Positions 9,344 to 56,532 of a stretch of DNA of 58,864 nt are shown piece after piece. Source of the stretch: Planctomycetota bacterium (GTDB lineage Bacteria > Planctomycetota > B15-G4 > SIAN01). Position numbers and translations under genes: made by a program. Where the stretch lies: NCBI GenBank assembly GCA_031409275.1, contig JANNXA010000042.1:1-58864 (forward strand), written 5' to 3'. How positions within the stretch are numbered: position 1 is the stretch's first letter; each line of letters opens with the position of its first letter. Below the pieces are notes generated by a model. The model searched no databases and was not told the origin of the DNA. It was given only the letters and a program-made list of their open reading frames with translations.

Positions 9344-12229
9344 TCACTCGCCTTCGATGCTCTCGAGCGGGCCATTCTCCGGCATCACCTGAAGCGTCTT
9401 CAGGAAGTCGATGACGCAGGCGGCGTTCGCCTCCGAGAGCGCCGCGTACGCATCGCGCGCGGCCTGCGCCTCGCCACCGTGCATGAGGATGGCGTCGGCG
9501 ATGGTCAGCGCCCGGCCGTGGTGCATGAAGGGCGGCTCGCTGGCGAAGCCCCAGAGCTTCTTGGTGAGGAACTGCGAGGTCGGCACGCCGCCCTGGACGA
9601 GCGTCTCGTTGTTGAGCTCGGCGCCCATGTCGTGGCGCTTCAGGTCGGTGTAGGCCGGGACGCGCACGCTGCCATCGGTCTCCGGCGCGAGGTGCGGACC
9701 GGGGCCGTGAGCGGTCAGGTCGACCTCGAAGGGCGCCGCCACATCCGCCACCGCTAGGTTGCCCGACGGGTTGAAGGGGTTGGGCTCGCTGAAGAGCGGG
9801 CTGTCGAGTGCGAGCTCGGGCACGTGACAGGTCGCGCAACCGAGCGACGCGAAGAGCTTCTCACCGCGCTCCACGGCCTTCTGTCGCTTGCCCTGCGCCG
9901 GCAGGACGCGGCCCGGCACCGGCAGGAGCGCCTGGTAGAGCGTCGTCGCCGTGACGTCGCCGCGCGAGAGCTCGTCGAGCACGCCATCGCTGTCGGCATC
10001 GACGCCGTCGCCGAACCGCTCGGACGGCTGCATGCCGTGGTGGTGGTTCATCGCGTTGTTGGTGAACTCGCGCAGCGAAACCACGACGCCCTTCTGGTGG
10101 AACGGGCGCACGATCAGGTCCGCGTTGACGCCCTGGACTCCGCTCGTGTCGACCGAGCCGTTGGCGTGCGCGGTCAGGGTGCCGAAGGAGACGCCCTTGG
10201 TCACGAGATCGACCGTCACGTCCGCGTTGTCGTTCGCCGCCTGCGCGATCGCGGCGACGCGCTGTGCGATCAGCTCCGTCGACATCTCGCGCGAGAGCAG
10301 CTCGATGAAGCCGGCGCCCCACATGCCGAGCGTGTTGCGCTCGTTGGCGGCCTGTTCGAGCGTCGGCGTCAAGCTCAAGTCATCGAGCCCGCCGTTGAAG
10401 CGCAGGAACGGGAAGCGCTGTCCGAGCACGAAGACGTTGGCGACGTTGTCGCCGCCGCCGCCCGAACGCGGCAGGTTGTGGCAGCCGCCGCAGCTGTTGG
10501 CGTCGGGGGCCGAGATGCGGTTGAAGTTCTCGGGCACCGCGTGAGCCGTGCGCGCCGAACCGGTGCCAGTGGTGGTCGGACGCCCCTGGCCGTCGAGCGT
10601 GTTGAAGAAGGCATTGAAGCCGACCTTGCCGATCGCGAAGAGCGCCTCCGGCGTGTAGACGCCCGCGTCGATGTCATCCTGATCGATGTGGCCACCGGCA
10701 AGCGCCGGCTCGTCGCCGATCGTTCCCGAGGGCGCGCCGATCACGACGCTCGACGTCGCGTCTTCCGGCAGCACCTGCAAGGTCTTCAGGAACTCGACGA
10801 TCTTCTTCTGGTCGTTGGCGGACAGCGCTTCGTACGCGAGCCGCGCGGCATCCCCTTCGCCGCCATGCATGCGGATCGCCTCGTCGATCGTCGTGGCGCG
10901 GCCATGGTGCATGAACGGTGGCTCGTTGCTCATTCCCCACAGCTTCTTGGTGAGGAAGAGGTTCCCCGCGACGCCCGCCTGCACCAGCGGCTCGGCGAGG
11001 CCGGAGCCCATGTCGTGGCGCTTCAAGTCGGTGTAGGCGCGCACCTTCACGCTGCCATCGGACTCGCGCGGCAGATGCGGCGCGGGGCCTTCCGTGGTGA
11101 GGTCGACGGTCACCGGATCGATGACGTCGACGAGGCGCAGGTTGCCGGCCGGGTTGAACGGGTTGGGCTCGCTGAAGAGCGGACTGTCGAGCGTGAGCTC
11201 GGGGACGTGGCACACGGCGCAGCCGGCCGTCGCGAAGAGCTGTTCACCGGCGATCACGGCATCGAGCTCGACGCCAGCCGGACCGGGCAGGAGCTGGCCC
11301 GGCGCGGGCAGCGTCGCTTGCCACAACGTCGCCGCGGTGATGTCGCCGGGCGTCAGCTCGTCGGCCATGCCGTCGGCATCGGCGTCGACGCCAGCGCCGA
11401 AGCGCTCCGACGACTGCATGCCGTGGTGGTGGTTCATGGCGTTGTTGGTGAACTCGCGCAGCGACGTGACCACGCCCTTCTGGTGGAACGGCTTGATCAC
11501 CAGCGTGGTGTCGACCCCCGCGACGGCGCTCGTGTCGAGCGAGCCGTTGGCGTGCGCCGTGATCGAACCGAAACCGACTCCCTTGGCGACGAGCGGCAAC
11601 GTGACATCGCTGCCCGCCGTCGCCGCCTGATCGATCGCATCGTCTCGGATCGCCTGCAGCTCGGTCGTCATCTCGCGGGCGAGCAGCTCGATGAAGCCGG
11701 CACCGAACATCCCGAGCGTGTTGCGCTCGTTGGCGACATCCTGAAGCGTGTGGGTCTGATTGCCGTCGCCGATGCCGCCGTCGAAGTTGACGAACTCGAA
11801 GCGCTGCCCGAGCACGAAGACGTTGGCGACGTTGTCACCGCCGCCGCCGACGCGAGGGATGCTGTGGCAACCGGCGCAGGAGTTGGCGTCCGGGCCCGAG
11901 ATGCGGTTCATCTTCTGCGTGCCTTCGCGGCGGTTGCGCGCGACACCAGTACCCGTCGTCTCGGGTCGCATCGCGCCGTCGAGTTCGTTGAAGCTGCCCG
12001 CGAAGAGGAGCGCGCCGGCATCGAGCACCTGCTCGAGCGGCACGCGGCCAAGCTCGAGCGCGCGCTGGTCGAGGTGACTCCCGAGCACGCCGCTGTCGCC
12101 TTGCGCGGTGAAAGGCGTCTCCTCGTGACTGCTCTTGCGCCAGCAACCCGCGGCGAGTGCCGCAGTGGAAAGGAGCAGGAGTCGAGAATTCCCGCGTCGA
12201 ACGCTGCGGACCGCACGAACATGAACCAT
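9344..12229 (-). CDS. Lipoprotein with two tandem di-haem oxidoreductase (DHOR-like) modules, 4 CxxCH
   Basis: LAAGC lipobox; CAGCH, CAVCH, CGGCH, CATCH; duplicated RNTLGM.GAGFIE, YTDLKRHDMG, LWG, PPFMHHGRA. Confidence 0.85.
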   Translation of the reverse strand: MVHVRAVRSVRRGNSRLLLLSTAALAAGCWRKSSHEETPFTAQGDSGVLGSHLDQRALELGRVPLEQVLDAGALLFAGSFNELDGAMRPETTGTGVARNRREGTQKMNRISGPDANSCAGCHSIPRVGGGGDNVANVFVLGQRFEFVNFDGGIGDGNQTHTLQDVANERNTLGMFGAGFIELLAREMTTELQAIRDDAIDQAATAGSDVTLPLVAKGVGFGSITAHANGSLDTSAVAGVDTTLVIKPFHQKGVVTSLREFTNNAMNHHHGMQSSERFGAGVDADADGMADELTPGDITAATLWQATLPAPGQLLPGPAGVELDAVIAGEQLFATAGCAVCHVPELTLDSPLFSEPNPFNPAGNLRLVDVIDPVTVDLTTEGPAPHLPRESDGSVKVRAYTDLKRHDMGSGLAEPLVQAGVAGNLFLTKKLWGMSNEPPFMHHGRATTIDEAIRMHGGEGDAARLAYEALSANDQKKIVEFLKTLQVLPEDATSSVVIGAPSGTIGDEPALAGGHIDQDDIDAGVYTPEALFAIGKVGFNAFFNTLDGQGRPTTTGTGSARTAHAVPENFNRISAPDANSCGGCHNLPRSGGGGDNVANVFVLGQRFPFLRFNGGLDDLSLTPTLEQAANERNTLGMWGAGFIELLSREMSTELIAQRVAAIAQAANDNADVTVDLVTKGVSFGTLTAHANGSVDTSGVQGVNADLIVRPFHQKGVVVSLREFTNNAMNHHHGMQPSERFGDGVDADSDGVLDELSRGDVTATTLYQALLPVPGRVLPAQGKRQKAVERGEKLFASLGCATCHVPELALDSPLFSEPNPFNPSGNLAVADVAAPFEVDLTAHGPGPHLAPETDGSVRVPAYTDLKRHDMGAELNNETLVQGGVPTSQFLTKKLWGFASEPPFMHHGRALTIADAILMHGGEAQAARDAYAALSEANAACVIDFLKTLQVMPENGPLESIEGE

Positions 12230-17963: not shown

Positions 17964-19313
17964 ATGCGCATCGGTTTCTCGTCCACCTTGATCGCCGTCG
18001 CCCTGTGCTGCAGCACCGGGTGCCAGCGCGTCAGCCACGACCGCGCCCCGACCTCGGAGGCGACGGCGCAGTTCGACGCCAGCGTCGCCACGCGCTGGAT
18101 GCAGACGCTCTACGACGTGGTGAAGACCAACGCCGGCCTTTCTCCGCCGGTCGCGTCGCGCGCCTACGGCTACGCGGGCGTGACGCTCTGGGAGTGCGTG
18201 GTGCCAGGCATGCCGGGCCATCAGTCGCTCGCCGGTCAGCTGAACGAGTTCACCGGCGTGCCGCAGCCTTCCGGAATCGTCGACTACCGCGCGGTCGCCA
18301 ACACCGCGCTCGCCGCGGTGATCCAGGGCGGGATCATCCCGGCCATCAACGGCACGAACGTCACGCGCGTCACGGACCTCGAAGCGGACATCAACGGCGA
18401 GCTCGCGCTCGAAGTCGATCCCAGCGTCCTCCAGCGCTCGAACGACCTCGGTGCCGACATCGCGGCCGCGATCCTGACCTGGGTCGCGGGCGATGGCTTC
18501 ACGATCTTCAACAACTGCACCTACACGCCGCCGGTCGGCCCCGGTCTTTGGGTGGCGCTCAGCGGACAGACGGCGCTGCAGCCGTGCTGGGACCTGATTC
18601 GCCCCTTCGTGCTGCTGCCGGCCAGCGAGTGCGCTCCGATCGCCCATCCGACCTTCAGCGAGACGCTCGGTTCCGCGTTTCGCAACGAGGCGCAGGAAGT
18701 CGTCGACACGTGCGGTGACGCCGGCGCGGGCCTGACGGTCGATCAAGACGCAATCGCCCGCTTCTGGGCCGACGGCCCCGGAGCCACCGGCACGCCGCCG
18801 GGCCACTGGATCTCGATCACCGCGCAGATCTGCGACGACGATGGCGAGACGCTCGCGGTGGCCGCCGAGGCCTACGCGAAGCTCGGCATCGCGGTCGCCG
18901 ACGCGTTCATCTCCTGCTGGCAGACCAAGTACCAGTACAACCTCGAGCGGCCGATCACCTACATCCAGCGCGTCATCGACGCGAACTGGGATCCGCTGCT
19001 GGCGACGCCGGGCTTCCCCGAATACACGTCGGGCCACTCGGTGCAGTCCGGCGCGGCTGCAACGGTGCTGACCAACGTGCTCGGCGCGCGTGCCTTCACC
19101 GACAACACCCACACGATCCACAATGACTTGGTCGGCGCCGGCAACACGGTCCCGCCCGCGCGCAACTTCACCGACTTCGACACCGCCGCGCAGGAAGCTG
19201 CCGATTCGCGCCTGTTCGGCGGCATCCACTTCCGTGCCGCCATCGACAACGGCGTCGCGCAAGGCGTCTGCGTCGGGACCGAAGTGCTCGACAACCTGCA
19301 ATTCCTGAAGTGA
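17964..19313 (+). CDS. Vanadium-dependent haloperoxidase-like (PAP2 superfamily) lipoprotein
   Basis: SPPVASRAY, TPPGHW, WQTKYQYNLERP, TPGFPEYTSGHS, SRLFGGIHF; Cys-containing signal peptide. Confidence 0.88.
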   Translation: MRIGFSSTLIAVALCCSTGCQRVSHDRAPTSEATAQFDASVATRWMQTLYDVVKTNAGLSPPVASRAYGYAGVTLWECVVPGMPGHQSLAGQLNEFTGVPQPSGIVDYRAVANTALAAVIQGGIIPAINGTNVTRVTDLEADINGELALEVDPSVLQRSNDLGADIAAAILTWVAGDGFTIFNNCTYTPPVGPGLWVALSGQTALQPCWDLIRPFVLLPASECAPIAHPTFSETLGSAFRNEAQEVVDTCGDAGAGLTVDQDAIARFWADGPGATGTPPGHWISITAQICDDDGETLAVAAEAYAKLGIAVADAFISCWQTKYQYNLERPITYIQRVIDANWDPLLATPGFPEYTSGHSVQSGAAATVLTNVLGARAFTDNTHTIHNDLVGAGNTVPPARNFTDFDTAAQEAADSRLFGGIHFRAAIDNGVAQGVCVGTEVLDNLQFLK

Positions 19314-19481: not shown

Positions 19482-20984
19482 CTACTTGCCCGCGTAGCCC
19501 AGGGCGTGCAGCGCCTCGCTGTCGAGCGCTTCGAGCTCGCGCGCGTTGCTGCCCACCGGCGGCGGTAGCTCGCGCATCTGGCGCAAGGCCTCGTCGCGCA
19601 GCGTCGCGGCGCGCTCCGGTTGCGCCGCAGCGAGGTCGCGCTTCTCGCCTGGATCGAGTTCGAGGTCGTAGAGCTCGACCTTGACGGGCTCGTTGGCCCG
19701 ATCGAGCGTCACGATCACCTTGAAGCGCTCGCTGCGCAGCCCGATCAGCGAGTTCGGTACCACGTTGATCTGCCGCTCGCGCAGCGCTTCGAGCAGGATC
19801 TCGCCCGGCGCTTCCGCCGCCGCGCGACGCGCCGGATCGGCGTCCGTGAAGGACAGCAACGAGCGCCCCTGCATCGCGGGCTCCGGCGGGAGTCGCAACC
19901 ACTCGAGCACCGTCGGCGCGACATCGAGCGTCCGGACCAGCGGCGCCACCCGCTCGCCGCGCGCGCTGGCGTCGGGACGCCGCACGATCAGCGGCACGCG
20001 CATCACTTCGTCGTAGATCTCGCTGTTGTGCTCGAAGATCTGCTTGTGCTCGCCGAGCGCCTCGCCGTGATCCGCCACCACCACGATCAGCGTCTCGTCG
20101 AAACGCCCCACCTTGCGCAGCCCGTCGAGCAGCCGGCCGAGCTGTTCGTCCTGCCACGCAAGTTCACCGTCGTAGAGCGCCGACATGTGCTCGCGATCGC
20201 CGGCGCCGAGCTGCCCGCGCTTGTAGAGCTGCCAGAACTTGCGCTGGTCGCCATCCATCGGGCCGCGGTAGTCGGGATCGAAGGCGCGATCCCACGGCGG
20301 CGGCGGCTGATAGGGCTGGTGGGCGTCGAAGTAGTGCACCCACAGGAAGAAGGGCTGCTGGCCGAGGCCGGAGAGCCAGTCGAGCGCCGCGTTGGTCGTC
20401 GAGTCGCCGCTCCGTTGATAGGCGGTGGCGATCGTCGCTTCCCACTTCTTGCGATCCTCGGCAAGGTCCTTCGGCAGCTTGCTCACGTCGAACTTCATCA
20501 GCGGCGTGTCGACGTGGTCGTCGTACGCGGCGAAGCCCTGGTCGAGGCCGAACTGGGAGTCGAGCACGAACGCGGAGACGAAGGCGCCGGTCGCGTAGCC
20601 ACGCGCCTGCAGCAGTTCGGCGAGCGTCGTCTGCTCGGCGCCGAGGAAATAGACCGCGTTGTCGTGGACGCCGTGGCTCTGCGGATAGCGGCCGGTGAAG
20701 AGCGAGGAATGGCTCGGGAACGTGGACGGAATCGGCGTGAACGCGCGCTCGAAGGTCGTCCCCTCCGCCGCGAGCGCATCGAGGCGCGGCGTCTTCGCCG
20801 CCTTGAAGCCGTAGGGGCCGAGCCGGTCGGCTCGCGTCGTGTCGAGCGAGACGACGAGCACATTGACGGGCTGCCCCACCGGCTGTGTGGGCAGACGCGA
20901 CGGCGGCTCGTCACCGCAACTCGCGAGGAGCGCTGGCAGCAGCGGGAGGAGTGACGCCGTTATCGTGCCGCGGTGGCCATTCAT
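19482..20984 (-). CDS. Sulfatase-fold (alkaline phosphatase superfamily) lipoprotein with Thr at the nucleophile position
   Basis: LLASC lipobox, VSLDTTRAD, STFPSHSSLFTG, WVHYFDAHQPY, ADHGEALGEH, ELYDL..DPGE, LHALGY. Confidence 0.88.
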   Translation of the reverse strand: MNGHRGTITASLLPLLPALLASCGDEPPSRLPTQPVGQPVNVLVVSLDTTRADRLGPYGFKAAKTPRLDALAAEGTTFERAFTPIPSTFPSHSSLFTGRYPQSHGVHDNAVYFLGAEQTTLAELLQARGYATGAFVSAFVLDSQFGLDQGFAAYDDHVDTPLMKFDVSKLPKDLAEDRKKWEATIATAYQRSGDSTTNAALDWLSGLGQQPFFLWVHYFDAHQPYQPPPPWDRAFDPDYRGPMDGDQRKFWQLYKRGQLGAGDREHMSALYDGELAWQDEQLGRLLDGLRKVGRFDETLIVVVADHGEALGEHKQIFEHNSEIYDEVMRVPLIVRRPDASARGERVAPLVRTLDVAPTVLEWLRLPPEPAMQGRSLLSFTDADPARRAAAEAPGEILLEALRERQINVVPNSLIGLRSERFKVIVTLDRANEPVKVELYDLELDPGEKRDLAAAQPERAATLRDEALRQMRELPPPVGSNARELEALDSEALHALGYAGK

Positions 20985-22922
20985 CGCGCGGAGCATATCG
21001 ACGGCGCGACAGCGCGACCCGCAACGGGCCGACGCTGGCGCGCGTGGATTGGCGGGCTGCTGCTGGTCGCGGCGCTCGTCGGCTCGGCGCAGGTCCGTCT
21101 TCGCGTCGCCCGCGCCGATCCCGGCTTCGACGCGAGCGATCCGCGCCGCGTGCTGTGGAGCGACCCGGCGCTCCTCTACTACTTCACCGAGCGCATCGTG
21201 GAGAACGGCGGCAGCGCCCCCGCCGACCTGCGCGCCGACCCGAGCTTCCAATGGCCCGACCGCGTCGACGCGATCGCGTTCGAGACCGTGGGTCAGGAGT
21301 ACGTCGCGGCGGCCTGGCACCGCTGGTTCGGGGCGGGGCAGTCGCTGCACGTGAGCTGTCTCGAATCGATGAGCTGGTCGGCGAGCGCGGTCGCGATCGG
21401 CATCTTCCTGCTGGCCGCAGAGGTGACCAGGAGCGCGCTGCTGGGCGGCTTCGCGGCGCTGCTCTACGCGCTGCTTCCCACCAGCTACCGCACGCTCGGG
21501 ATCATGCTGCTGCGCGAGGATTTCGCGCTGCCGTGGTTCGCCCTCCACCTGGGCCTGCTCGCCATCGCCGCGCGCCGCCGCACCGCGAGCTGGTTCGTGG
21601 CGAGCGGACTGGCGCTGCTGCTGGCGCTGGCGACCTGGCACGCGATGGGCTTCGTCGTCGCGATGGAGGCGGCCGTCGTCCTCGCGTGGTACCTGCGCAG
21701 CGGCGACAACCCGTTCACGGTCCCGCGCGCGTGGCTGCTTCCAGCCGTCGTCGCGGCCGGCTCGTTCGTGGTGCCGGTGCTGCGCGCGAAACTCGCCGTC
21801 TTGTCGCTGCCGATGCAGGCCGTCGCCGGCCTGCTCGCGGCGCACGTCGTGATGCGGCGCGCCGGCGCGAAGCCGTGGCACGGCCGCGCGGCAGCGCTGG
21901 CAGGCACCGCGGCGGCGGCGTTGACGGCGATGGCGTTGTCGAGCGCGCTCGGCGGCGGTCTTGGCGACTACTCGCACGTGGTGCGGCTGCTGCTGGCGAA
22001 AGCGCGCTTCCTCGGCCAGTTGCCCGCCGATCCGCGCGCGCTCGATTTCGAGGCGCGCCTCCTGTGGCAAGGTCCGTTCGAAACCAGCAGTGTCGCCGCG
22101 CTGGTCAGCGGCATGGGCATCACGCTGATCGCCGTGGCGTTGCTGCTGCTTCGCCGGATCCCCGATTGGGTTCGCGGTCGCGGCGAGCGACGCGAAGCGC
22201 TGTTGGCGGCGTTCTCGGCCGTGACGCTGGTCGCCGCATGGTTGGTGGCGCGCACGGAAGTGGTCGCCGGGATGGCGGCGCCGGTGGCGGCAGCCGTCGT
22301 GGTCGGCTGGCTGCGACCGCGCCTGGCGCAAGCGCTGGTCGCCGCGCTCGCACTGGCCATCGCCGGTTTCCAGCTCGAGCCCTTCCTGACCCACCACCGC
22401 ATCGACTGGTACTCGGTCCCGCGTCGCTCCGCCGACGGCAGCGTCTCCCTCGTCGCCCATCCCCGCCAGAATCACCTGCCGCGGCTGCTCACGTTCATCG
22501 ACGCCAACGTGCCGAAGGGCGCCGCCGTCGCCGCGGACATGGTCACCTCGACGGCGATCCTCGCCCACACGCGCCACCCGATCCTGCTGCAGCCGAAGTA
22601 CGAGTCGCGCGAGAGCCGCCGCCGCATCGAGGAGTTCCTCGACACCTTCTTCCGCGGCACGCCCGCCGACCTCGCCGCCTGGCTGCGCCGCTACGACTGC
22701 CGCTGGTTCGCGTGCGACGTGAAGACGCTGGGCCTCGGGTCGCCCTACCTCGCCGGGTTCAAGGACGACGGCAGCGAGCCGCCCGCGCCCGGCACCGCCG
22801 CCGCCGCCTTCCTCGCGCCCGAGCCACCGGCAGAGATTTCCGGGCTCACACTGCGCTGGCGCTCCTCCGTCGACCCGCGCGCTGAGCTCTATCGCGTCTA
22901 CGAGCTGACCAGCGATTCGTGA
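20973..22922 (+). CDS. GT-C membrane glycosyltransferase, DPY19-like (STT3-related)
   Basis: About 12-13 TM segments plus soluble C-terminal domain; WSDPALLYYF, LLREDFALPW, DYSHVVRLLLAK..DFEARL, AVAADMVTSTAILAHTRHPILLQPKYESRESRRR; start approximate. Confidence 0.75.
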   Translation: MAIHRAEHIDGATARPATGRRWRAWIGGLLLVAALVGSAQVRLRVARADPGFDASDPRRVLWSDPALLYYFTERIVENGGSAPADLRADPSFQWPDRVDAIAFETVGQEYVAAAWHRWFGAGQSLHVSCLESMSWSASAVAIGIFLLAAEVTRSALLGGFAALLYALLPTSYRTLGIMLLREDFALPWFALHLGLLAIAARRRTASWFVASGLALLLALATWHAMGFVVAMEAAVVLAWYLRSGDNPFTVPRAWLLPAVVAAGSFVVPVLRAKLAVLSLPMQAVAGLLAAHVVMRRAGAKPWHGRAAALAGTAAAALTAMALSSALGGGLGDYSHVVRLLLAKARFLGQLPADPRALDFEARLLWQGPFETSSVAALVSGMGITLIAVALLLLRRIPDWVRGRGERREALLAAFSAVTLVAAWLVARTEVVAGMAAPVAAAVVVGWLRPRLAQALVAALALAIAGFQLEPFLTHHRIDWYSVPRRSADGSVSLVAHPRQNHLPRLLTFIDANVPKGAAVAADMVTSTAILAHTRHPILLQPKYESRESRRRIEEFLDTFFRGTPADLAAWLRRYDCRWFACDVKTLGLGSPYLAGFKDDGSEPPAPGTAAAAFLAPEPPAEISGLTLRWRSSVDPRAELYRVYELTSDS

Positions 22923-52283: not shown

Positions 52284-52456
52284 GAGCGGTTTCCTGCAGA
52301 GCCAGACGAAGGAGCAGAGCGGGCCCTATTCTTGCGCTCGCAGCGTCCAAAGCACAACCCGCCCACCCTCGCGGACCCGGCATGCCACGCCCGCGCGATC
52401 GCCGCCAATCGCATCTCCCGACGCCGCCCGCCGCCGTGCCGATCACGCCCGGCGCG

Positions 52457-54154
52457 ATGGCGCCGCCGCGCGGACGCGCTCGCGCCACCGCGTTCGCGCT
52501 CGTCCTGCTCGCGCTGCTCGCGTTCGCCAACGGGTTGCGCGGCGAGTTCGTCTACGACGACCTGCCCTATGTCGCCGACAACCCGCAAGTTCAGCAACCG
52601 ACCTTCTCCCGCCTCTTCCTCGAACCGCTGACGAACCGTCCGGAACTCGGCCTCCATCGACCGCTGCCGCTGCTGACCTATGCCCTGCAAGCGAACGGTC
52701 GCGGCCGCGAGGCCCCCACCTGGCCGTTCCACGCGCTGAACGTAGCGCTCCATGCTGGCGTGACGCTGCTGGTATGGCGCCTCTTCCTGCGCATGCGCGT
52801 CGGCGACGCCACTGCGTGGCTTGCGGCGGCGCTCTTCGCGGCCCATCCCTGCCACCTTGAAGCGGTCGTCTGGATCGTGGGTCGCGCCGAGTTGCTCGCC
52901 GCTCTTTTCGGGATCGGCTACCTGCTCCTCGAACTGCGCGAATCAGCGCGCGTGCGCGATCGTGCCGCGGCAGCGTTGCTGCTGCTGCTCGCCGGATGGT
53001 CGAAGGAAAGTACGTTCGTGCTGCCGGCGCTGCTGATCGTGCTGCAGACCGCGCTCGCCGGGACTTCGACGTGGACTGGGTGGTGGCGCGTGACGCGGCG
53101 GCAATGGCCGGCGGCATTGGTGCTGCTCACGTTGCTGCTCGTCCGTTACGCCGCCATGGGAACGCTCGCTCCCGACCGCGCCCTCGCGACCTATCGCCAC
53201 CTCGCCTGGTTCGAGCGGCTCGGCGTCGCGTTCCAGCTCTTCGGCGAGTACTTCGCGCGTTCGTTGGCGCCGCTCACGCCGCGACTCTTCTTCCACGAAT
53301 CGGAGTTCACGCAGCCGCGCGCGCTGGCGCTGCTCGGCTCGGCGAGCTGGATCGCGGCACTCTGGTTCGCGCGCCGCCGTCCCCCGCTGCGCGCCGCACT
53401 GCTCGCCTTCCCGCTCGCGCTCGCGACAGTCCTGAACGTCGTGCCGATCCAGGAGTCGTTCGCGCAGCGCTTCCTCTACCTTCCCAGCGCGTTCGCGCTG
53501 CTGCTGCCGGCCACCGCGCTCGCGGCGTGGCTGGCGCGCGAACGTCGACGAAGCGGTCGGATCGGCGCATCGCTCGCGGCGCCCGCGGTCGCCATCGCGC
53601 TGCTGGCGGGTTCGACGCTGCGATTCAATCCGCTCTTCGACGACGCGCTCACGCTGTGGCGCCACAACGTCGCGCAGGCCCCCGACGTCCCGTTCGTCCA
53701 CTACCAGTTCGCCTACTTCCTCCACGATCACGGCCTCTACCTTCGGCGCGACGCCGAGACTCCGGGCGCGCTCGACGAGTACGAAGCGGCACTGGCCGCC
53801 AACCAGAAGATCGTGGCGCGAGGCGAGCGCGGAATGCCGCCCGACCAGCTCGCGCGCGCATGGCTCTCGATTGGCACCATCTGCCGCGTCCTCGCGCCGC
53901 CGGCTCGCCGCAACCCGCGGCGCGCGAAGGAGGCGCTCGAGCAGGCGATCGCGGTCGGCGAGCGCATCGAACAGCTCGACCTCGAGCTCGGGCGCGCCTA
54001 CTTCCAGTTCGCGCAGCTGAGCGCGGACCACGTCGGAGTGACGCCCGACCTCGCCGAGCGGGCGCTGCGTCGCGCACTGCAGCTTCGACTTCCCGACGCC
54101 TTGCGCCAGTCGATCGAAGAGGAGCTCGCGCAACGAGTGGCGGAGCGCGGCTGA
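52457..54154 (+). CDS. TMTC-like GT-C protein O-mannosyltransferase homologue with C-terminal TPR-like region
   Basis: FVYDD, HRPLPLLT, FHALNVALH, LFAAHP.HLEAV.WIVGRAELL, SKE, QRFLYLPS, LW..TPR-like helices. Confidence 0.85.
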   Translation: MAPPRGRARATAFALVLLALLAFANGLRGEFVYDDLPYVADNPQVQQPTFSRLFLEPLTNRPELGLHRPLPLLTYALQANGRGREAPTWPFHALNVALHAGVTLLVWRLFLRMRVGDATAWLAAALFAAHPCHLEAVVWIVGRAELLAALFGIGYLLLELRESARVRDRAAAALLLLLAGWSKESTFVLPALLIVLQTALAGTSTWTGWWRVTRRQWPAALVLLTLLLVRYAAMGTLAPDRALATYRHLAWFERLGVAFQLFGEYFARSLAPLTPRLFFHESEFTQPRALALLGSASWIAALWFARRRPPLRAALLAFPLALATVLNVVPIQESFAQRFLYLPSAFALLLPATALAAWLARERRRSGRIGASLAAPAVAIALLAGSTLRFNPLFDDALTLWRHNVAQAPDVPFVHYQFAYFLHDHGLYLRRDAETPGALDEYEAALAANQKIVARGERGMPPDQLARAWLSIGTICRVLAPPARRNPRRAKEALEQAIAVGERIEQLDLELGRAYFQFAQLSADHVGVTPDLAERALRRALQLRLPDALRQSIEEELAQRVAERG

Positions 54155-54181: not shown

Positions 54182-54760
54182 CTACTCGAGGTGGTCTTCA
54201 TCCGGATCCTGCGACTCGCCGCCCTCTTCCTGGCCGACGAGCCCGGCAAGCAGCCGAGCGAACGCGAGCGGATCGAAGCCCAGCGTGAGCCCCACCAGGG
54301 CCAGGTGGACCTGCGCCGAGAACTGGCTCCCGCGCTCGGCCGCAAGATCGCCGCGCCACTGCGCGAGCCCGCCGCCGCGGATCGCGAAGTCGGAGGTGTA
54401 CCAAGGCGACAAACCGTACTCCGCCCCGCGCAACGACTCGCTGCGCCAGGCGCCCGCGCGCAATCCGGCGGCGAACTCGGGGAGCGCGGTCACGTTCGAG
54501 TCGATCTCGGCGGAACCGATTGCGAGCGCCCCTGCCTGCAGGTAGCGCGTCGCGGTCACGCGCGCTCCGAGGCCAGGACCGAACAACAGCTCACAGTCGA
54601 AGGAGGCTCGCAGCTCGGCGGCGCGGCGCTGCCAGAACGTCGGCCGCGCGCCGGGGTCGACCGGCGCCTGACAACCGGCCAGCGATGCCATCAGCAGCAG
54701 CGCCGCTGGCGCGCAACGAGCCGCCGAAGAACGGCGCGGTGGAAGAGCGAGTGGCGTCAT
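54182..54760 (-). CDS. Hypothetical lipoprotein
   Basis: LAGC lipobox; GPGLGARV, GFDPLAF; ATGA coupling to the sulfatase-like gene. Confidence 0.65.
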   Translation of the reverse strand: MTPLALPPRRSSAARCAPAALLLMASLAGCQAPVDPGARPTFWQRRAAELRASFDCELLFGPGLGARVTATRYLQAGALAIGSAEIDSNVTALPEFAAGLRAGAWRSESLRGAEYGLSPWYTSDFAIRGGGLAQWRGDLAAERGSQFSAQVHLALVGLTLGFDPLAFARLLAGLVGQEEGGESQDPDEDHLE

Positions 54761-56532
54761 CGATTTCCTGCCCGGAGTTCGTCGAGGCGACGCTTGGCCC
54801 ACTCGACCTGAGTGGCCGGAGCCGCCGTCCCGCTTCCGACGGCGCGCAGGAACCGTTCGATCGCTCCCGCGGCATCGGATTCGCCCATGCGGTCGGCAAC
54901 CTGCGCGATCTCGAATAGCAGCGTCACCGAGTCACCGATGAGCTGCATGGCAATCCGGAGCTCGTTCAGCGCGACCACTCCATCGCCACGCGCCGCAGCG
55001 CGACGCCCGGCGCTCCAGTGCTCGGAGGCGTGCATGCCGACGACGCCGCCCACCGGCCCCGCGACGTAGCCGCTCCGGCGCAGGTCGGCGAGCGCGCCTT
55101 CATCGGGCGGCGCATCGACCGTCAGATCACCAGGCAGTTCCTCGAACGGCGCGGTGGCGAGCAGTTCGTCGAGCGCGCGCTGCAACTGGAGTTGGCGCTC
55201 GGGAACGATCGCATCGATCGCCGTCTCGCGGCCATCGGCGTCGACCCGCCACATCGAATCGCCGCCCGGTTCAAGGCGCAGCAGCTTCTCGCCGCCGCCA
55301 CTCCCGTCCGCTCGAAACGCCGCGAAGCGACGGCGATCGATCGCGGTCACGTCGCCGCCCGCGCTGGCGACGAGGTCGACGAGGTCGACCGGTCGGTGGT
55401 ACTGCGCGATCGCCGCCGTCGGCATGCGATCCGGCGGCGGGGACCAATCGGGCACGCGCCCCTCGCTCACGTCCTCGATCCACAGTTTCAGCTCGGTGAG
55501 CAGCACCGGTTCGGGGATGCGGGCCGGATTGACGCGTCCCGGAAAGCGAACGACCAGCGGCACGCGCAACAACGACTCTGCCAGTGACAACTGATGGTCG
55601 ACGAGCCCTTGTTCGCCGAGCTGTTCACCGTGGTCCGAGGTGACGATCACCAGCGTGTCCTCGGCGAGATCGAAGCGGTCCAGGAGGTCGAGCAGTTCGC
55701 CCAGACGCGCATCGGCCGCACGAATCTCGCCGTCGTAGAGCGCGGAGAGGCCCGGCGTATCGGCGGACGTCACGCGCTCCTGCCCGAGCAGCGTCTTCTG
55801 CAGCAGGTCGCCTTGCGCCGCAAGGCCATGCGCTCGCTCGTCGGCGACTCCGAACTGCGTGTCGAACGGTGGCGGCGGCGCATACGGGAGATGGGCGTCG
55901 GCGTAGTTCACGAACAGGAAGAACGGAGTCCGGTCGTCCCGCCGCTCGAGCCAGGCGCGGATCTCCGCGTTCGCGATCCCGGAGTCATCGAGGCCACGGT
56001 GGTCGGCGCGCCGGCTCCAGGTTTCGACGAAGGTCTCGAATCCTTGGTCGAGGTGATAGAGCGACGAGGCGTTGGCGTTCGTGGTGACGCCGAACGTCTC
56101 GCGGCCGGCGCTCGCAAGGCGCTCCGCCATCGTCTCGAACCGGCCGAGCAGCCAGCGGTGCTCGAAGGTGCAGCCGTGCTGCGACGGCGCCAGCCCGGTG
56201 AAGAGCGAGGCGTGGCTCGGCAGCGTCCACGGAGCGACCGTCCGCGCCTGCTCGAAGAGGAGCCCCTCCGCCGCCAGCGCCGTGAGCCGGGGCGTCGTAC
56301 GCTTGGGGTACCCGTACGCCGAACAGTGGTTCGACCCCACCGTGTCGAGGACGACCAGGACCACGGAAGTCGGGCGATGCGGCCGCTGGATGAGGCCGAC
56401 CACGACCAGTCCGATCACCAGCAGCCCCACCATCCAGAGCGCGACCCCGAGCAGGCCGACGCCCGCGCGGAGTCGGGCTCCGGGGGAGCGCCGGAATTGA
56501 CGAAGCGGGGCGCTTCGTGCAAACTGCCGCAC
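54757..56532 (-). CDS. Membrane-anchored sulfatase-fold protein with Thr at the nucleophile position and C-terminal helical extension
   Basis: N-terminal TM helix, VVLDTV, APWTLPSHASLFTG, FVNYADAHLPY, TSDHGE, LRRSGY; start approximate. Confidence 0.87.
   Translation of the reverse strand: MRQFARSAPLRQFRRSPGARLRAGVGLLGVALWMVGLLVIGLVVVGLIQRPHRPTSVVLVVLDTVGSNHCSAYGYPKRTTPRLTALAAEGLLFEQARTVAPWTLPSHASLFTGLAPSQHGCTFEHRWLLGRFETMAERLASAGRETFGVTTNANASSLYHLDQGFETFVETWSRRADHRGLDDSGIANAEIRAWLERRDDRTPFFLFVNYADAHLPYAPPPPFDTQFGVADERAHGLAAQGDLLQKTLLGQERVTSADTPGLSALYDGEIRAADARLGELLDLLDRFDLAEDTLVIVTSDHGEQLGEQGLVDHQLSLAESLLRVPLVVRFPGRVNPARIPEPVLLTELKLWIEDVSEGRVPDWSPPPDRMPTAAIAQYHRPVDLVDLVASAGGDVTAIDRRRFAAFRADGSGGGEKLLRLEPGGDSMWRVDADGRETAIDAIVPERQLQLQRALDELLATAPFEELPGDLTVDAPPDEGALADLRRSGYVAGPVGGVVGMHASEHWSAGRRAAARGDGVVALNELRIAMQLIGDSVTLLFEIAQVADRMGESDAAGAIERFLRAVGSGTAAPATQVEWAKRRLDELRAGNR

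Follow-up and report, generated by a model that had tools for sequence, protein, structure and literature searches.

The window analysed here is the whole of contig JANNXA010000042.1 (58,864 nucleotides, forward strand) from the Planctomycetota bacterium assembly GCA_031409275.1, and its principal feature is an open reading frame (ORF) at positions 20973-22922 of the plus strand, which starts with GTG, is free of internal stops and encodes a 649-residue protein composed of a multi-pass membrane part followed by a C-terminal alpha/beta 'dome' domain. The gene is flanked by a divergent gene for a sulfatase-like lipoprotein and by transhydrogenase genes. Because the genome that holds the window (as contig C42) amounts to 5.6 Mb at 93% completeness and 1.6% contamination, and because the neighbouring genes are bacterial, the source of the gene is bacterial.

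20973..22922, plus strand: DPY19-family GT-C glycosyltransferase of bacterial clade A, 649 residues (Pfam, profile, AlphaFold model, tree)

A bacterial branch of the DPY19 family

The 649-residue protein is an intact member of a bacterial branch of the DPY19 family, the family of the tryptophan C-mannosyltransferases DPY19 and DPY19L1-L4 (Pfam PF10034, CAZy GT98, PDB 7ZLG-7ZLJ), and it is not an oligosaccharyltransferase (OST). An earlier sequence-only reading had proposed this kinship from short blocks set against DPY19 motifs; all of the quoted blocks are present in order (starting at residues 62, 179, 332, 358 and 505), the DPY19 motifs cited there agree with PDB 7ZLG (RTEMGLYYSY, PLRESF, DAHIFDIL..K, IVNHPHYE), and family membership is borne out by profile, structure and tree. 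With the Pfam Dpy19 profile the protein scores 54.9 bits (cut-off 27.2; E 6e-15), and the Pfam scan shows no match at E<=1 to any further family, STT3 (PF02516) included; an NCBIfam scan gave no family and a single-sequence PDB search no significant match. A profile built from bacteria only (114 clade-A sequences, zero eukaryotes) retrieves C. elegans DPY-19 with an E value of 1.5e-16 over some 500 residues, its second match being STT3B at 0.011, and a profile-profile comparison with two mollusc DPY19L3 proteins gave a probability of 95.9 over 507 columns. Among 26 relatives scanned with Pfam, two carry a secondary STT3 match below the Dpy19 score and one has a weak STT3 match alone.

The AlphaFold model (predicted local distance difference test score 95.6, predicted template-modelling score 0.94) superimposes on DPY-19 with a Z score of 27.9 over 588 residues (root-mean-square deviation 3.6), compared with Z scores of 26.0 for STT3B, 23.6 for AglB, 17.5 for PglB and 16.1 for ArnT, and in Foldseek the three DPY-19 structures rank 1-3, narrowly, with template-modelling scores of 0.73-0.75. 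A better match to AglB, PglB or ArnT, which would have spoken against the kinship, was not seen, DPY19 being at the top of both the profile and the structure comparisons.

The phylogeny places the protein on the DPY19 side, apart from STT3/AglB-like outgroups. In the main tree (46 rows, IQ-TREE, LG+G4, with bootstrap values that had not fully converged), animal-type DPY19 and two bacterial clades, A and B, are separated from 10 outgroups (7 bacterial STT3-like, 2 haloarchaeal AglB and 1 archaeal-virus AglB) with support of 100/99, and the same split receives 99 under a mixture model with 28 rows; FastTree and smaller row sets were also used. These trees leave out eukaryotic STT3 and alveolate DPY19, their eukaryotic rows being named animal L3 proteins and unnamed L1-/L3-type metagenome sequences, with alveolates and choanoflagellates absent. 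Clade A and eukaryotic DPY19 are each supported at 100/100 in the 46-row tree. Inside the DPY19 side the bacterial clades come together at 77/66, the alternative under the mixture model (28 rows) being that the eukaryotes are sister to clade A at 82. A union of animal DPY19 with the archaeal-virus AglB was rejected (approximately unbiased test, p-AU 0.018). The eukaryotic stem is long, at 1.5-1.9 changes per column, and mean identities are 23% between clades A and B, 15% between clade A and eukaryotes and 30% between the animal L1 and L3 types. By these identities, with that of A and B lower than that of the animal types, the bacterial family is old and no recent gift from animals. A compact 597-residue AglB/STT3-like protein that bears WWDYG was also noted in a Nitrosopumilaceae spindle-shaped virus (L231:1642-3435).

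The bacterial relatives number in the hundreds. A protein search returned 135 relatives out of 8000 scored candidates, and an exhaustive search yielded 671 representatives at E<=0.001, or 144 at the stricter 1e-30. Of 73 GTDB loci, 58 are labelled Planctomycetota or subgroups, the remainder belonging to Myxococcota, Deltaproteobacteria, Thermodesulfobacteriota, Acidobacteriota, unnamed bacteria and one 'Glaciecola' bin; the clade-A gene in this last bin (L008) is distant from other hosts and possibly lies on a mis-binned contig. Clade A, which includes the 649-residue protein, occurs in Planctomycetota and Myxococcota and is marked by the motifs S-D-P-A-L-L-Y-Y and Q-P-K-Y-E, and clade B, with T-E-x-A-x-H-Y and H-x-K-F-E, has hosts named Elusimicrobia, Krumholzibacteria and one Deltaproteobacterium. 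Clade-B members are often fused to tetratricopeptide repeats (TPRs); all 14 second-tier relatives scanned lie above the Dpy19 cut-off, 12 of them with TPRs. A phylum containing a Myxococcales record harbours a sub-branch, C: of its 151 genomes searched, 8 have branch C and 3 have clade A. Atlas holds further bacterial Dpy19 clusters, the commonest in Verrucomicrobiota (59 members) and Lentisphaerota (158).

The distribution is nevertheless patchy: strong matches occur in 8/301 genomes of the source phylum, in 5/42 genomes of the source order (every one in the source's own family) and in 2/251 genomes of a Desulfobacterota-type phylum, and intact full-length genes are present in 56/101 genomes of one other family. 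None of 14 control genomes has a Dpy19 match, the queries used recovered no viral or plasmid copies, and no RNA holder of the gene is among the matches listed. No archaeal member is named among the matches listed or the Atlas Dpy19 clusters, the archaeal genomes searched being four controls only. One Desulfosudaceae-labelled genome (G301) combines a clade-A gene with one of clade B (L227 and L228), the clade-B gene following a TMTC-like membrane TPR gene, and one clade-A gene (G651:C3:39979-41789) is broken into two overlapping frames by a frameshift or an assembly error.

According to reviews, the DPY19 family is confined to animals and alveolate protists. Automatic Pfam Dpy19 labels on bacterial proteins already exist; no description of a bacterial DPY19 was found in the literature, of which subscription papers and supplements could hold a mention, and no report of tryptophan C-glycosylation in bacteria was found there. 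Irrespective of activity, a diverse bacterial family overturns the animal/alveolate-only distribution, and it is a possible source of the patchy eukaryotic DPY19.

Residues of the predicted active site

The roles of DPY-19 residues are taken from Bloch et al. (PMC10154233), and conservation was counted over 325 sequences (114 clade A, 80 clade B and 131 eukaryotic). The corresponding segments of the protein are as follows.

21156..21200, plus strand: first external loop W62-V76, with D64 aligned to the DPY-19 catalytic base Glu71 (alignment)
21489..21536, plus strand: R173 (= Arg211) and R181-E182 (= Arg219-Glu220), with Leu180 where the OST DxE motif has its metal-binding Asp (alignment, conservation)
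21636..21644, plus strand: W222 (= Trp262, donor phosphate contact), with A224 at Phe264 (alignment, conservation)
21966..22079, plus strand: external loop 5 (EL5), D332-F369, with H335 (= His375), K343 (= Lys383) and F359 (= Phe390) (alignment)
22251..22262, plus strand: R427 (= Arg471, phosphate salt bridge), with E429 and V430 in place of the +3 sequon pocket residues Lys473 and Leu474 (conservation)
22533..22550, plus strand: A521-S526 (A-D-M-V-T-S) at the place of OST WWDYG, the motif being absent; D522 is clade-A-specific (alignment)
22590..22619, plus strand: dome loop Q540-R549 (= His575-Arg584), with P541 = Pro576, Y543 = Tyr578, E544 = Glu579 and R549 = Arg584 (alignment, conservation)

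In the column of the catalytic base, clade A has Asp in 113 and Glu in 1 of 114 sequences and clade B has Glu in 77/80. Bloch et al. give the cost of Glu71Asp as only 20% of DPY-19 activity and record Asp in human DPY19L4 (PMC10154233). The donor-binding residues are invariant in clade A: the counterpart of Arg211 is found in 114/114 clade-A and 74/80 clade-B sequences, that of Glu220 in 114/114, 77/80 and 131/131 eukaryotic sequences, that of Arg471 in 114/114, 79/80 and 131/131, and that of Trp262 in 325/325. The counterparts of Glu579 and Arg584 are likewise present in 325/325. In EL5, the His375 counterpart is present in 114/114 clade-A and 73/80 clade-B sequences and that of Lys383 in 113/114 and 78/80. 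The two acidic counterparts proposed in the sequence-only reading are in place (D64 for Glu71, E544 for Glu579); that reading also takes Glu579 to be important for activity.

The loop that holds the acceptor in DPY-19, H-P-H-Y-E-x4-R, reads Q-P-K-Y-E-x4-R in clade A, with both His residues changed. The Pro576 counterpart is found in 114/114 clade-A sequences, and that of Tyr578 is Tyr in 110 and Trp in 4 of clade A and Phe in 72 and Tyr in 6 of clade B; according to PMC10154233, the Pro576 carbonyl binds the indole N1 and Tyr578 stacks on the acceptor Trp. In the region of the Trp(0) cage the alignment puts an invariant W365 one residue after the Tyr395 column and an invariant F369 one before the Phe401 column. 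On the whole, the parts of the site that carry the chemistry look conserved, unlike the +3 pocket. D522 is Asp in 112 and Glu in 2 of the 114 clade-A sequences.

Compared with DPY19, the protein shows the same whole-length fold, a collinear alignment, the base in the first external loop, counterparts of R211, R219-E220, W262, H375, K383, F390, R471, P576, Y578, E579 and R584, and neither WWDYG nor DxE. It differs in an identity of about 15%, in its bacterial host, in a clade-A base that is Asp-Pro rather than Glu, in changes at K473, L474, F264 and probably Y395, in Q and K at H575 and H577, in a conserved 9-residue insert in EL5 and in the absent EL5-dome disulfide; no conserved Cys was found among the invariant or near-invariant columns, and none at the places aligned with Cys407 and Cys630. 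With the OSTs STT3, AglB and PglB (PF02516, GT66) it has in common the architecture reflected in the Z scores above, the Asp-Pro base and the Arg/Glu/Arg set and Trp in external loops. Unlike the OSTs, however, it has no WWD anywhere in its 649 residues, in line with the missing WWDxG of the sequence-only reading, L-R-E where the OST metal-binding DxE/DxH motif would be, as in DPY19, no Pfam STT3 match, and a fully supported branch separates the two groups. The suggestion of an OST-to-DPY19 intermediate holds in part: the base retains an OST-like Asp-Pro, but in the tree the protein groups with DPY19.

Proposed reaction and competing explanations

On this evidence we slightly favour the view that the protein is a metal-independent tryptophan C-glycosyltransferase that uses a lipid-phosphate sugar and a sequon other than WxxW. 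Exported proteins would receive a single sugar from a polyprenyl-phosphate carrier, most probably through a carbon-carbon link to tryptophan. By analogy with the DPY-19 structure, the first transmembrane helix would orient the protein with its loops and dome at the outer surface of the inner membrane, the lipid phosphate would be held by R173, R427 and W222, the indole would be caged by the P541-x-Y543-E544 loop together with F369/W365, and D64 would accept the C2 proton following electrophilic attack. Metal would be dispensable, as in DPY-19, because the aspartate of the OST DxE motif is gone, and the +3 pocket is probably remodelled, with a different sequon expected since K473 and L474 of that pocket are replaced.

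Lipid-phosphate sugars are plausibly available in the source genome, because it encodes a short GT2 protein whose best solved match is Dol-P-Man (dolichyl-phosphate-mannose) synthase (E 1.6e-24), with 32 GT2 matches, 15 PMT_2 matches and one TMEM260-like gene in all; mannose is a plausible choice of transferred sugar. An STT3-family gene was not found in this 93%-complete genome.

As to acceptors, clade A has no conserved operon, the neighbour genes differing among loci, and no candidate substrate was found. The clearest context comes from branch C. In 5/6 loci fetched, its gene comes directly after TMEM260-like genes, of which two are confirmed at four of these loci and a single one at the remaining locus; one of the gene runs starts with a type IV pilin. 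The arrangement is a gene of about 300 codons without a Pfam match, two TMEM260-like genes and the DPY19-like gene (L353-L356 and L357:1574-9131, G809:C10), with the pilin first in L357, and has the look of a locus for pilin glycosylation assembled from homologues of two animal endoplasmic reticulum mannosyltransferase families. Position 54 of the mature pilin is Trp, within W-x-x-F/Y, in 8/8 branch-C genomes; in the 21 genomes that lack a strong match it is Trp in 0/29 pilins and mostly Phe or Tyr. Low C-mannosylation with Phe at +3 is recorded in PMC12990085. This signal has no direct bearing on the clade-A protein of the window; together with the TPR fusions, the branch-C TMEM260/pilin operon hints at protein acceptors.

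Several observations weigh against C-glycosylation by the 649-residue protein. Lys473, which according to PMC10154233 holds Trp(+3) and is required for activity, is present in 131/131 eukaryotic sequences and is outside the five commonest residues in both bacterial clades; the neighbouring Leu474 column is mostly Val in bacteria, the Tyr395 column is Leu or Met, Phe264 is Ala in clade A, and Pro576 is kept in only 16/80 clade-B sequences. Arg211, Glu220 and Arg471 are also STT3 residues (PMC6801728) and so give no pointer to C-glycosylation. The structural lead of DPY-19 over STT3B is below 2 Z, and identity to animal DPY19 is about 15%. WxxW was considered as a substrate signal and rejected: exported and membrane proteins of the source genome show a 1.29-fold enrichment of it relative to other Trp spacings (interval 1.15-1.44), and this enrichment is generic, since a same-order genome without a strong match (G561, 2.0 of 5.3 Mb) reaches 1.37-fold (1.13-1.64), both counts resting on crude gene and signal-peptide calls. 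Pilin Trp54 was likewise rejected as a clade-A substrate (0/7 pilins in three clade-A genomes), and the branch-C signal amounts to about one independent contrast, the eight genomes being probably one lineage picked by likeness to a W-bearing query. Finally, the paralogue in the source genome ends a GT4/GT2 gene run, which is compatible with a glycan or oligosaccharide role. The WxxW sequon implied by the sequence-only reading is therefore unlikely, given the loss of K473, the uncertain Y395 and an enrichment no higher than in a genome without the gene, and the label 'WxxW C-mannosyltransferase' is unwarranted because two DPY19 features, the K473 pocket and the disulfide, fail.

These losses bear directly on a rather unlikely alternative, in which the DPY19 scaffold serves in bacteria to glycosylate proteins through O- or N-links (to Ser, Thr, Tyr or Asn), possibly with an oligosaccharide, and C-glycosylation was invented on the long eukaryotic branch. 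The changes at K473, Y395 and F264 and the missing Cys407-Cys630 disulfide suit it, as do the Asp-Pro retained at the clade-A base as in STT3/AglB, the length of the eukaryotic stem, the branch-C operons with O-mannosyltransferase homologues and the failure to find an STT3-family gene. The O-link-forming TMTC1-4 and TMEM260 proteins offer a parallel, clade B being GT-C plus TPR and full-length prokaryotic TMTC homologues being noted in PMC7801869, but they belong to other Pfam families and the 649-residue protein is without TPRs. Asn glycosylation by OST, moreover, requires both WWDYG and the DxE metal site, which are absent here, and the loop that in DPY-19 stacks on and hydrogen-bonds the indole is almost exactly preserved in clade A. 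If O- or N-links were nevertheless made, the family would reveal the few residues that made this scaffold a carbon-carbon-bond-forming enzyme.

It is distinctly improbable that the protein is a GT-C enzyme decorating a cell-surface glycan or glycolipid rather than protein, as ArnT, Aft or ALG enzymes do. Its paralogue comes after GT4 and GT2 genes, 7/55 loci have a further GT-C family and 8/55 have sulfatase-like T-x-P-x-H proteins no more than 1 kb away, and the 32 GT2 and 15 PMT_2 matches in the genome also speak for it; most loci, however, have no adjoining glycan cluster, the protein-modifying DPY-19, STT3, AglB, PglB and Pmt structures outrank ArnT, ALG and Aft, and the TPR fusions and pilin/TMEM260 operon suggest protein acceptors. 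ArnT and the mycobacterial Aft/Emb enzymes, which act on lipid or glycan acceptors, share the GT-C core and the polyprenyl-phosphate sugar, with a far weaker structural match (Z 16 or less). We regard it as very improbable that the gene was recently acquired from an animal or protist, is a contaminant or is a relic without activity: the spread is patchy, as given above for the phylum and order, but clades A and B are more divergent than the animal L1 and L3 types, zero bacterial sequences fall inside the eukaryotic clade, and the full-length genes in 56 genomes of one family are intact with invariant catalytic residues.

Should tryptophan C-glycosylation be correct, the known kinds of protein glycosylation in bacteria would grow by one, and glyco-engineering would gain single-chain bacterial enzymes that follow new sequon rules. 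The wider proposal, that this modification is a bacterial invention applied to exported proteins in several uncultured lineages (in one myxobacterial branch to type IV pilins at W-x-x-F/Y) and that animal and alveolate DPY19 derive from the bacterial family by gene transfer, is tentative, and we consider it more doubtful than not.

Genomic setting and neighbouring genes

The nearest neighbour of the DPY19-like gene is the divergent gene listed below, whose likely ATG overlaps the start of the ORF by about 12 bases, so that the start of one or the other may be slightly misplaced.

19482..20984, minus strand: predicted sulfatase/alkaline-phosphatase superfamily lipoprotein, with T-x-P-x-H at the nucleophile site (Pfam Sulfatase, E 3e-46)

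A sulfatase-like gene lies within 1 kb of 8/55 homologous loci, against a background of 68/2355 genes of the source genome (2.9%), the related loci not being independent, and it is a recurrent, non-obligatory neighbour of clade-A genes. The sulfatase signature is Cys/Ser-x-P-x-R. It is replaced by T-x-P-x-H in 29/57 sulfatase-superfamily proteins of the source genome, and these proteins may for that reason be phospho-transferases or phosphodiesterases instead of sulfatases. The window encodes a second superfamily protein at 54757-56433 (minus strand) besides that at 19482-20984.

The paralogue of the DPY19-like gene (41% identity) is on contig C16, where it overlaps the stop of a GT2 gene and closes a run (G000:C16:158828-169027) of a GT4 gene, a GT2-containing gene of 1525 codons and the GT2 gene. 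Elsewhere, an unnamed GT-C family of about 600 residues (borderline PMT_2 at most) is encoded immediately next to the clade-A gene, in the same orientation, at 7/55 loci (L016, L019, L020, L022, L026, L050 and L057). In one lineage (L013, L014, L024, L044, L045, L047, L056, L058 and L073) a GGDEF gene and a stand-alone MreB-like actin gene lie upstream and an FHA-sigma54 activator and a Ser/Thr kinase downstream.

Also present in the window are a 572-residue membrane protein (52436-54154, plus strand) with a TMTC-type GT-C likeness by eye and no Pfam match at 1e-4, and a predicted PAP2-superfamily lipoprotein (17964-19313, plus strand), slightly below the Pfam PAP2 cut-off and presumably resembling vanadium haloperoxidases. 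A di-haem oxidoreductase-like protein with two tandem DHOR units is encoded at 9344-12088 on the minus strand.

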